IMG/VR virus record: IMGVR_UViG_3300044691_000243
Span: 1 to 62,643 of that record
Strand: one strand, 5' to 3'
Length of the DNA: 62,643 bases
Origin: a virus
Lineage: Duplodnaviria; Caudoviricetes
The notes below the pieces were generated by a model. The model had not been told where the DNA came from, did no database searches, and was given only the letters and a program-made list of their open reading frames with translations. Of this stretch, positions 15,185 to 16,091 are shown in pieces (within the stretch, counting starts at the first letter, position 1; the number at the start of each line of letters is the position of its first letter). The translations under genes and the position numbers were made by a program.

Positions 15185-15550
15185 TCAATGGACTTTGTCC
15201 TGGCTGGTGGGGCACTGCATGAGGCGACCCACGATCTCGATCACGGTGTCGGACTGTTTCCGGACCAGGTTCGTGAGCCCGCTGATCGCCTCGTTGATGG
15301 TTTCCTCGGTGACCAGGTCACGATCGTAGGCCGCTTTGATGTTAAGCATCAGCACCAGCTTGGCGGTCTGGCTGTATAGCCCCAGGCAGGAGAGGGCCAT
15401 CTCGCCGAACTCCGCGCGCGTGGCGCCGCGGTCATATAGGTCCATCAACGCCGACGCCGCCCCTGCCTGTATTTCAGCGGTCGCCTTGTCGGCGGGGTTG
15501 GCCTGAAGCAGCGCGATGATCGCGTGCTCGTTGAGGAGCGGGTCACCCAT
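15185..15550 (-). CDS. Hypothetical protein
   Basis: 121 aa helical ORF overlapping upstream gene stop. Confidence 0.6.
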   Translation of the reverse strand: MGDPLLNEHAIIALLQANPADKATAEIQAGAASALMDLYDRGATRAEFGEMALSCLGLYSQTAKLVLMLNIKAAYDRDLVTEETINEAISGLTNLVRKQSDTVIEIVGRLMQCPTSQDKVH

Positions 15551-16091
15551 TGTTCGGCTCCTCGGCGATGAGCAGCTGCACTGCTAGTTCCCGCGAGGCG
15601 GGGGTGATGAGATATCCCATCCCCCACATCGTCTCAATTACAAGACCGAAGGGCTTTAGTTTCTTGCGGAGTTTGCAGATCATGACATCGACCATCTTCT
15701 GGTCGATATCCTCCTTGCCGGACTTCTGCGTGATCACGACGTGGAGCTGTTCTTTGGTGACTTGGTCCCGCCGGAGCATCAACGCGAGCATGCCGGCTTC
15801 GAGCGGCGATGTCTTGAACTTGCGGGCGCAGGCGATCTTGAGGGCTTCCTCCTGTTCGAGTGGCGTGCCGTGGAAGACGACGCGGGAGCTGCGGTTACTC
15901 CCTGGCGGCCAGTCGTCTTTCGGGAGCTCCACGATCATACCCGTCGCAACGGCGTCGCGGAGTAATTCGTAGATGTCGGAGGATGGAAGGCTGGTCGCGC
16001 GGGCGATAGCTCGTATTGGGATGCCTTCGTCGGCTAGGCGGATCGCGATGGCGATACTTGATTGGATTGGCTCGGCCGACTGGGCGTCCAT
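15543..16091 (-). CDS. CtrA-like OmpR/PhoB winged-helix regulator with N-terminal HTH instead of receiver domain
   Basis: [14 protein letters not shown]...IETMWGMGY resembles CtrA [14 protein letters not shown]...IETVWGRGY; N-term [19 protein letters not shown] HTH. Confidence 0.8.
   Translation of the reverse strand: [182 protein letters not shown]

Follow-up and report, generated by a model that had tools for sequence, protein, structure and literature searches.

Does a phage that carries binding sites of the CtrA type depend on its host to read them, or does it bring a reader of its own? CtrA acts in Alphaproteobacteria as master regulator over the cell cycle, motility and gene-transfer agents. 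The question is raised by REG (P0001), a gene in the IMG/VR virus record IMGVR_UViG_3300044691_000243 (62,643 bp; estimated completeness 96%), the whole of which was analysed and is called the window here. REG (15543..16091, minus strand) encodes 182 amino acids; it starts with an ATG at 16091, preceded 7 nt upstream by a ribosome-binding-like AAGGTG, and ends with a stop codon at 15543–15545. The original prediction, made from the sequence of the window, described a CtrA mimic in which a second helix-turn-helix (HTH) had taken the place of the receiver. Its coordinates were exact, but the gene lies on the minus strand, the plus-strand frame over the same interval being closed by many stops. 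The answer that we favour, with moderate confidence, is that REG may be a phosphorylation-independent reader and activator of CtrA-type boxes at late promoters.

The C-terminal part of REG (residues ~70–166; 15594..15884, minus strand) is a winged-helix DNA-binding domain of the OmpR/PhoB type, and Pfam PF00486 (Trans_reg_C) matched its residues 96–161 at 34.9 bits (gathering cut-off 26.2; E = 1.7e-8). Within it lies the recognition helix (residues 133–145; 15657..15695, minus strand), whose last eight residues, ICKLRKKL, are the same as those of CtrA. The peptide segments quoted in the original prediction, IETMWGMGY included, are all present in the translation. Response_reg was absent among the seven Pfam families listed for REG at E ≤ 1; without a phosphorylation-dependent receiver, REG is not a two-component response regulator.

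How specific to CtrA is this helix? A scan of 185,579 species genomes with DNA words for ICKLRKKL returned at least 120 stretches, almost all from Alphaproteobacteria. Among the 120 listed, 102 fell in open reading frames (ORFs) of 225–260 amino acids, and the ORFs displayed mostly carried IETVWGRGY. On the CtrA model of NCBIfam (NF045991; cut-off 350) two of them scored 425.7 and 425.6 bits. The CtrA strings given in the original prediction for comparison with REG are genuine. The helix is also, as had been claimed, characteristic of CtrA within the OmpR family, the C and K of ICK occurring in 0 of 24 non-CtrA paralogues.

For the domain as a whole, the comparison set consisted of 36 Trans_reg_C matches from three alphaproteobacterial genomes, with loci obtained for 30. 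A profile built from the C-terminal domains of 40 members of the REG family scored the three CtrA proteins at 46.6–48.7 bits, against 33.1 for the best other paralogue and at most 28.2 for the others; P0001 alone, run against the same genomes, gave 30.7–34.4 bits for CtrA against 23.9. The best NCBIfam model for P0001 was likewise CtrA (30.7 bits; runner-up 23.7), and across 43 family members the models matched at E ≤ 1e-4 were CtrA in 28, TctD in 13, PhoB (Bacteroidetes) in 5, TorR in 2, and RpaB and PhoB in 1 each. Aligned by hhalign, the family profile and Rhizobium CtrA gave a probability of 98.4% with 37% identity over 75 columns, the alignment being confined to CtrA residues 146–225.

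A quick tree of 116 rows did not resolve at its centre. We then relied on a careful tree of 53 rows (18 from the family, 12 CtrA, 2 CtrA-like and 21 other OmpR paralogues), from which nine long rows (six of the family, three of paralogues), three CtrA duplicates and the greater part of the CtrA rows had been left out. It separated the family, CtrA and the two CtrA-like sequences from the 21 other paralogues with support of 100/98. Within that group, the REG family formed a clade of its own (100/99) on a long stem, beside the CtrA clade (94/92) and not nested within it. By profile and by phylogeny, then, the domain is nearest CtrA and does not cluster with generic OmpR regulators. The two CtrA-like sequences (L115 from a Caulobacterales metagenome-assembled genome and L127 from Parvibaculum) carry ICKLRKKL in ORFs of 243–254 amino acids outside the CtrA clade and are possibly CtrA paralogues; their position next to the phage family in the careful tree is weakly supported (81/25).

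REG is not a CtrA orthologue. Its 30.7 bits on NF045991 lie far under the equivalog cut-off of 350 and cover model positions 154–221 only, it is receiver-less, and it falls outside the CtrA clade. The placement beside CtrA on a long stem is one of the points in favour of an unlikely explanation, namely that REG is an ordinary OmpR-class phage regulator, a repressor or an early-to-middle switch, with other repeats as its targets and a likeness to CtrA that reflects only shared ancestry.

Where the likeness resides is shown by 23 CtrA-signature columns, defined as those whose residue is present in ≥90% of CtrA sequences and in ≤15% of 24 non-CtrA OmpR paralogues from the three genomes. P0001 shares 4 of the 23, the family 2–9 (median 5) and the paralogues 0–4. 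The four residues of P0001 (K132, C139, K140 and W156) all lie in the recognition helix or the wing, occur in 0 of the 24 other paralogues, and are kept in the family at 40/40 (K132), 35/40 (C139), 36/40 (W156) and 20/40 (K140). REG thus has the recognition helix and wing of CtrA, with ICKLRKKL followed by IETMWGMGY where CtrA has IETVWGRGY. The helix 2–3 loop, which in OmpR-type regulators contacts RNA polymerase, is unlike that of CtrA. Because the likeness stops outside the recognition helix and wing, the word mimic fits the DNA-reading surface at most; for the rest of the domain this part of the original prediction did not stand.

These features bear on the main rival explanation, which we regard as possible, if tentative: phosphorylated host CtrA (CtrA~P) would read the TTAA-N7-TTAAC boxes and time the late genes, while REG acts in some other way at or near these sites, or elsewhere. 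REG could then compete with CtrA, block it or cooperate with it on DNA of the phage or of the host, for example at the replication origin or at promoters of flagella and pili; alternatively, it could have an unrelated operator. The diverged loop speaks for this explanation, since a protein with a helix 2–3 loop unlike that of CtrA might bind without activating. The residues that REG shares solely with CtrA speak against it, for they are the DNA-facing ones. Delaby et al. [quoted passage not shown] A sequence search of the PDB returned no CtrA DNA-binding domain. Because profile scores, NCBIfam models, hhalign, the tree, the signature residues and the T170 position agree, we assign the REG winged helix, as judged by its sequence, to the CtrA lineage, with the DNA-facing residues kept and the remainder, the helix 2–3 loop included, diverged.

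The strongest conservation of the family lies elsewhere, in the N-terminal domain of ~65 residues (in REG residues ~1–68; 15888..16091, minus strand), which carries the motifs RLADEG-P-RAIAR ... LP-DDWPP and has an HTH-like look. Seven positions (A20, E22, P25, R31, P57, D60 and W61) were invariant across 43 members, and P25, R31 and W61 were still invariant across 148. No Pfam family matched this domain above threshold. Below threshold, it matched HTH_7 (16.5 bits, cut-off 23.8; E = 0.0097), HTH_IclR (14.9 bits, cut-off 22; E = 0.023) and PDB entry 2lvs (E = 0.016), and 15 of 43 family members matched HTH_23 at E ≤ 0.1. That the receiver had been replaced by a second HTH is therefore correct as to the missing receiver; the second HTH is likely, as indicated by sub-threshold matches only. 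A query of the ESM Atlas with REG residues 1–92 gave no usable match. In five alphaproteobacterial genomes we found no homologue of the N-terminal domain (best E = 0.1), and for this reason dropped the idea that the domain is a copy of a host CtrA partner such as SciP.

To what extent is REG a peculiarity of one genome? A word-indexed search returned 191 proteins at E ≤ 0.001; among the 120 of these that were listed, lengths ran from 165 to 266 amino acids and 119 carried PF00486. An exhaustive search over clusters at 50% identity returned 1,794 matches at E ≤ 0.001, 300 at E ≤ 1e-10 and 39 at E ≤ 1e-30, and the best 150 of them listed (98–304 amino acids) nearly all cover both domains. PF00486 was matched by 42 of 43 family members at E ≤ 0.1. 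In IMG/VR we counted 81 confirmed REG loci, many on contigs of 55–70 kb, and at least 586 relatives of the portal gene; IMG/VR classifies one of the relatives as a provirus. Where the portal locus included 4.7 kb or more of upstream sequence, REG was present in 30 of 30 cases; among loci with a shorter flank, it was present in 1 of 46.

Outside this group the family was not encountered. Two N-terminal peptide patterns found no REG relative in the 185,579 species genomes, where divergent prophage copies may exist, and 50,697 deposited phage genome records held no REG carrier, just three weak, partial matches. The nearest cultured phages by portal (56% identity) are the Rhizobium phages RHph_TM27A, TM27B, TM29 and TM3_14A, which are without REG. 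An ORF of 176 amino acids at the syntenic position in RHph_TM27A was considered as a REG homologue and rejected (hhalign probability 0.15%). REG represents a phage-only family and is a core gene of a large group of uncultured phages rather than a single odd gene. The hosts are likely Alphaproteobacteria, the group of bacteria that bears CtrA.

The window contains more sites for a CtrA-type reader than chance would give. Three perfect TTAA-N7-TTAA boxes are present (at 1474, 17416 and 51484) against 0.08 expected, and 0 of 100 shuffles reached three. Those at 1474 and 51484, which the original prediction had proposed as binding targets, are perfect TTAA-N7-TTAAC, and 17416 is an additional perfect TTAA-N7-TTAA. 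Allowing one mismatch to TTAA-N7-TTAAC gives 14 strand-matches where 2.6 are expected; the one-mismatch matches at 17241 and 19350 are by-products of another motif. The boxes at 1474, 10820, 16473 and 51484 share the form GTTAA-N7-TT.A when read in the direction of the late genes. That boxes match the full CtrA consensus, outer C included, is as the host-CtrA explanation would have it.

The box with the clearest promoter context lies upstream of the portal gene (10820..10835, minus strand). Read towards the gene it is GTTAAGTAATTTTTAC, with one mismatch to TTAA-N7-TTAA, and it stands ~50 nt 5' of the portal ATG (10770). A -10-like hexamer, TATGCT (10794..10799, minus strand), follows 20 nt 3' of the box, so the second half-site occupies the -35 position; in relatives the hexamer is TATACT, and in many loci the -10-like region reads GTTATACTC or GTTATGCTC. 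A box over the -35 with a -10 downstream is the activator-dependent promoter layout of OmpR-type regulators.

Three other boxes also recur in relatives. The perfect TTAA-N7-TTAAC at 51484..51499 (minus strand) lies in a 65-nt gap between two virion genes, 47 nt 5' of the start of a virion structural protein gene (51437; phrog_8003), and has an orthologue in the closest relative, G004. The one at 1474..1489 (minus strand) overlaps the stop of a methyltransferase-like gene (1481–2041); its orthologues, TTAAGTAGTTTTTAA, are found in G004, G006 and G009. The perfect TTAA-N7-TTAA at 17416..17430, TTAACAAAAGGTTAA, sits in a hairpin-rich non-coding stretch of 780 nt, 5' of the run p100-p76-REG, and is identical, spacer included, in G004 and G006, with a one-base spacer change in G008. 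A one-mismatch box at 16473..16488 (minus strand), GTTAACCACCTGTTCA towards the genes, lies between the p100 stop, which it closely follows, and a GC hairpin; whether it is functional is doubtful. The 780-nt stretch itself (16795–17577) has no convincing ORF, several GC-rich hairpins, the box TTAACAAAAGGTTAA, a copy at 17252 of a palindrome described below, and no Rfam match; it may have a regulatory role or give rise to an RNA.

The enrichment extends across the group. In 21 full-length relatives we counted 51 boxes, compared with 9 for a reversed control pattern, and 17 of the 21 had at least one. The spacing was examined in 156 fetched loci (2.04 Mb, with some overlap): N7 gave 124 sites, whereas N5 gave 16, N6 9, N8 20 and N9 5, and the control AATT-N7-AATT 18. 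Of 60 distinct regions upstream of the portal gene, 48 carry a box (one mismatch or none), mostly placed at -57 to -66, against a background of 2.6%. Across relatives this portal box reads TTAA-N7-TTA(G/A), followed ~20 nt later by TATACT or TATGCT, and in more distant relatives, in which terL is inverted, the box is within the divergent gap before portal. Boxes also occur upstream of REG itself: a perfect one at -59 to -72 in 5 of 63 distinct REG-upstream regions and at -235 in a sixth (L050), and one with at most one mismatch in 16 of 63, against a background of 6.8%. The perfect boxes at -59 to -72 fit autoregulation or priming by CtrA.

Are the boxes tied to REG or to the host? RHph_TM27A, which lacks REG and whose portal is 56% identical, has 0 boxes in 60.9 kb. 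That REG is universal in its group, at 30 of 30 loci, and that the relative without REG is without boxes both speak against a reading in which host CtrA uses them. The second half-site of the portal box offers a further comparison. Phages with H or Y at position 5 of the REG helix have TTAA there in 13 cases and TTAG or TTAC in 1; with other residues at this position, the counts are 5 and 12 (naive Fisher p = 0.0007, uncorrected for phylogeny). The commonest portal box in the subgroup of the window ends in TTAG and tracks the REG helix, which would be odd for an invariant reader such as host CtrA. This tracking is only suggestive.

Several observations weigh against REG as the reader and activator of the boxes. 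Two concern the protein: P0001 has just the 4 of 23 CtrA-signature residues, and its helix 2–3 loop is unlike that of CtrA. Among the boxes of the window, that of portal alone is followed at the correct distance by a convincing -10; those at 51484, 17416 and 1474 are not. Four of the 21 REG phages are without a perfect box. The joint absence of REG and boxes comes from a single lineage, that of four near-identical TM27A-type phages, and the covariation between portal box and REG helix is confounded by two large clades. The phages RHph_X2_30 and RDJL3 have winged-helix proteins that P0001 matches weakly, and yet 0 TTAA-N7-TTAA boxes. Finally, TTAA-N7-TTAA is kept where the REG helix is far from that of CtrA (TIDVHICNIRRRL, TIDVHMYWLRQRM); boxes that persist regardless of the REG helix are as expected if an invariant host CtrA reads them. 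The host-CtrA explanation also has published precedent, host CtrA being known or proposed to control phage promoters for which the phage encodes no factor of its own (PMC9437464, PMC10589892).

Other repeats in the window could be the targets of an ordinary OmpR-class regulator. The palindrome TTACCG-N3-CGGTAA (15 bp) is present in 16 perfect copies (at 558, 14859, 17252, 19339, 21647, 24492, 27014, 28052, 29881, 31085, 35750, 38134, 42203, 45222, 54800 and 57542) and in 5 more with one mismatch, the chance expectation being far below 1. Copies occur every few kb, within ORFs as well as in intergenic DNA, and often in the longer form TTG-TTACCG...CGGTAA-CAA. The 16 perfect copies would suit such a regulator. 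However, the palindrome is found, at 7–21 copies each, in just 8 of the 21 related phages and is absent from the other 13 and from RHph_TM27A; it therefore does not travel with REG, and we rejected it as a family-wide REG site. The motif that is conserved across the family beside conserved genes is the TTAA-N7 box.

A second repeat, GACATTT, occurs in twelve copies in both orientations at 18087–18646, partly 8–11 nt apart. The copies flank divergent sigma-70-like promoter matches (18405–18451) in an AT-richer gap between the two arms of the genome, and resemble iterons, or else operators, belonging to an origin or control region. Direct repeats at a spacing of 10–11 nt are what OmpR-type domains bind, and GACATTT repeats are so spaced, which is a point for the ordinary-regulator explanation.

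For the favoured reading, that REG reads and activates CtrA-type boxes, we infer the following steps. REG combines an N-terminal domain specific to phages with a CtrA-lineage winged helix, and would not need phosphorylation. The N-terminal domain, probably a small HTH, would possibly provide the dimerisation that is otherwise given by the receiver. REG would bind TTAA-N7-TTA(A/G) boxes over the -35 of late promoters, of which the portal promoter is the clearest candidate, and would switch these promoters on as PhoB and CtrA do at class II promoters. The timing of virion gene expression would thereby be uncoupled from the phosphorylation state of host CtrA.

A stronger form of this reading, which we consider rather doubtful, would make REG a constitutive stand-in for CtrA. 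It would use the same boxes free of phosphorylation, a burst from a CtrA-type promoter would latch the late programme, and REG would also act on the host CtrA regulon and origin. If this were true, a whole group of uncultured alphaproteobacterial phages would be freed from the host cell cycle. The observations of the original prediction are confirmed, and its interpretation, of a phosphorylation-independent CtrA analogue that activates late promoters or hijacks the host regulon, is partly supported.

The arrangement of the genome gives the setting for these promoters. A run of minus-strand genes extends from ~17.9 kb to 1.5 kb, with small unknown genes first and then REG, followed by p121, p241, an exonuclease-like gene, endonuclease VII, terL, portal and tail-fibre-like genes. 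REG thus stands, as originally described, at the head of this arm, with the packaging and portal genes downstream. A plus-strand replication arm (18.6–42 kb) encodes DNA polymerase, helicase and primase, and a second virion arm occupies the minus strand at 42–62 kb. The window has no Rfam match and no tRNAs.

Downstream of REG the context is conserved. The order REG-(p121)-(p241)-(exonuclease)-terL-portal is kept across the loci of relatives, and portal (8440–10770) and terL (11155–12615), together spanning 8440..12615 on the minus strand, were identified by PHROG matches. The p121 gene (15185..15550, minus strand; 121 amino acids) has a start that overlaps the REG stop by 8 nt, neighbours REG in many loci and has no PHROG or Pfam match; its product could be a partner of REG. 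The next gene, p241 (14332–15057, minus strand), matches phrog_36773, a family of unknown function, and always accompanies terL, inverted terL included; it may be the small terminase subunit (terS), as which it had originally been taken. Tail-fibre-like genes with collagen-like repeats lie at 4766–6004 and 58800–61100, where a k-mer count shows the repeated 11-mers CCGGTCGGGCC and CCCGTGGGGCC.

How does REG compare with known systems? At pho boxes, PhoB exemplifies class II activation, in which a box of tandem repeats replaces the -35 and stands ~20 nt from a good -10. The portal promoter described here is alike, with its box at -35 and a -10 ~20 nt downstream. Unlike REG, PhoB requires phosphorylation of its receiver; the box sequence also differs, and PhoB models score below CtrA for REG. 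OmpR-type winged helices without a phosphoacceptor receiver are found in ToxR/CadC and in the Streptomyces SARP/AfsR proteins. Unlike REG, these have membrane or periplasmic sensor or BTAD partners, are cellular and are not CtrA-like. With CtrA itself REG shares the ICKLRKKL half-helix and the K preceding it, the wing W in IET-WG-GY and the TKE of helix 2, and its genome carries TTAA-N7-TTAAC boxes such as CtrA targets; it differs in having no receiver or phosphoacceptor site and another N-terminal domain, and in being encoded by a phage.

Among phages, there is a parallel in the boxes. In Mascolo et al. 2022 (PMC9437464), under the term 'lytic deferment', host CtrA is known or proposed to control promoters of alphaproteobacterial phages, and in the report on phage Jorvik (PMC10589892) a CtrA site lies between the packaging and structural operons. 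As in the REG phages, these boxes are in intergenic regulatory regions; unlike for the REG phages, both reports invoke host CtrA only, and the passages that term searches retrieved mention no phage-encoded CtrA-like protein. Our literature searches, whose coverage stopped short of supplements and subscription journals, returned no paper describing such a protein. A phage copy of a host cell-cycle regulator is described for Caulobacter phage phiCbK, which encodes a GcrA homologue (PMC3556154). GcrA belongs to another protein family and is present as a whole-protein homologue, whereas in REG a DNA-binding domain is placed on a new scaffold.

Also akin to REG is a 179-amino-acid 'helix-turn-helix transcriptional regulator' of Rhizobium phage RHph_X2_30 (MW980061.1; L003, 5953–6492). 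It has a CtrA-like winged helix (KIIDVRICHIR... VIETIWGKGY) and matches REG with an hhalign probability of 98.2%. Unlike in REG, its winged helix is N-terminal (residues 32–122) and is followed by a different C-terminal part, and it lacks the N-terminal domain of REG. The protein represents a second architecture for a receiver-less CtrA-like reader in a phage, independent of that of REG.

Since REG is small and its candidate sites are defined to the base, the identity of the box reader in phage genomes is directly testable, and REG could be used to probe the CtrA regulon independently of phosphorylation. Boxes in phage promoters are already taken to be a means of reading host CtrA activity; if REG reads and activates such boxes, it would represent a second strategy, in which the signal of the host is replaced.

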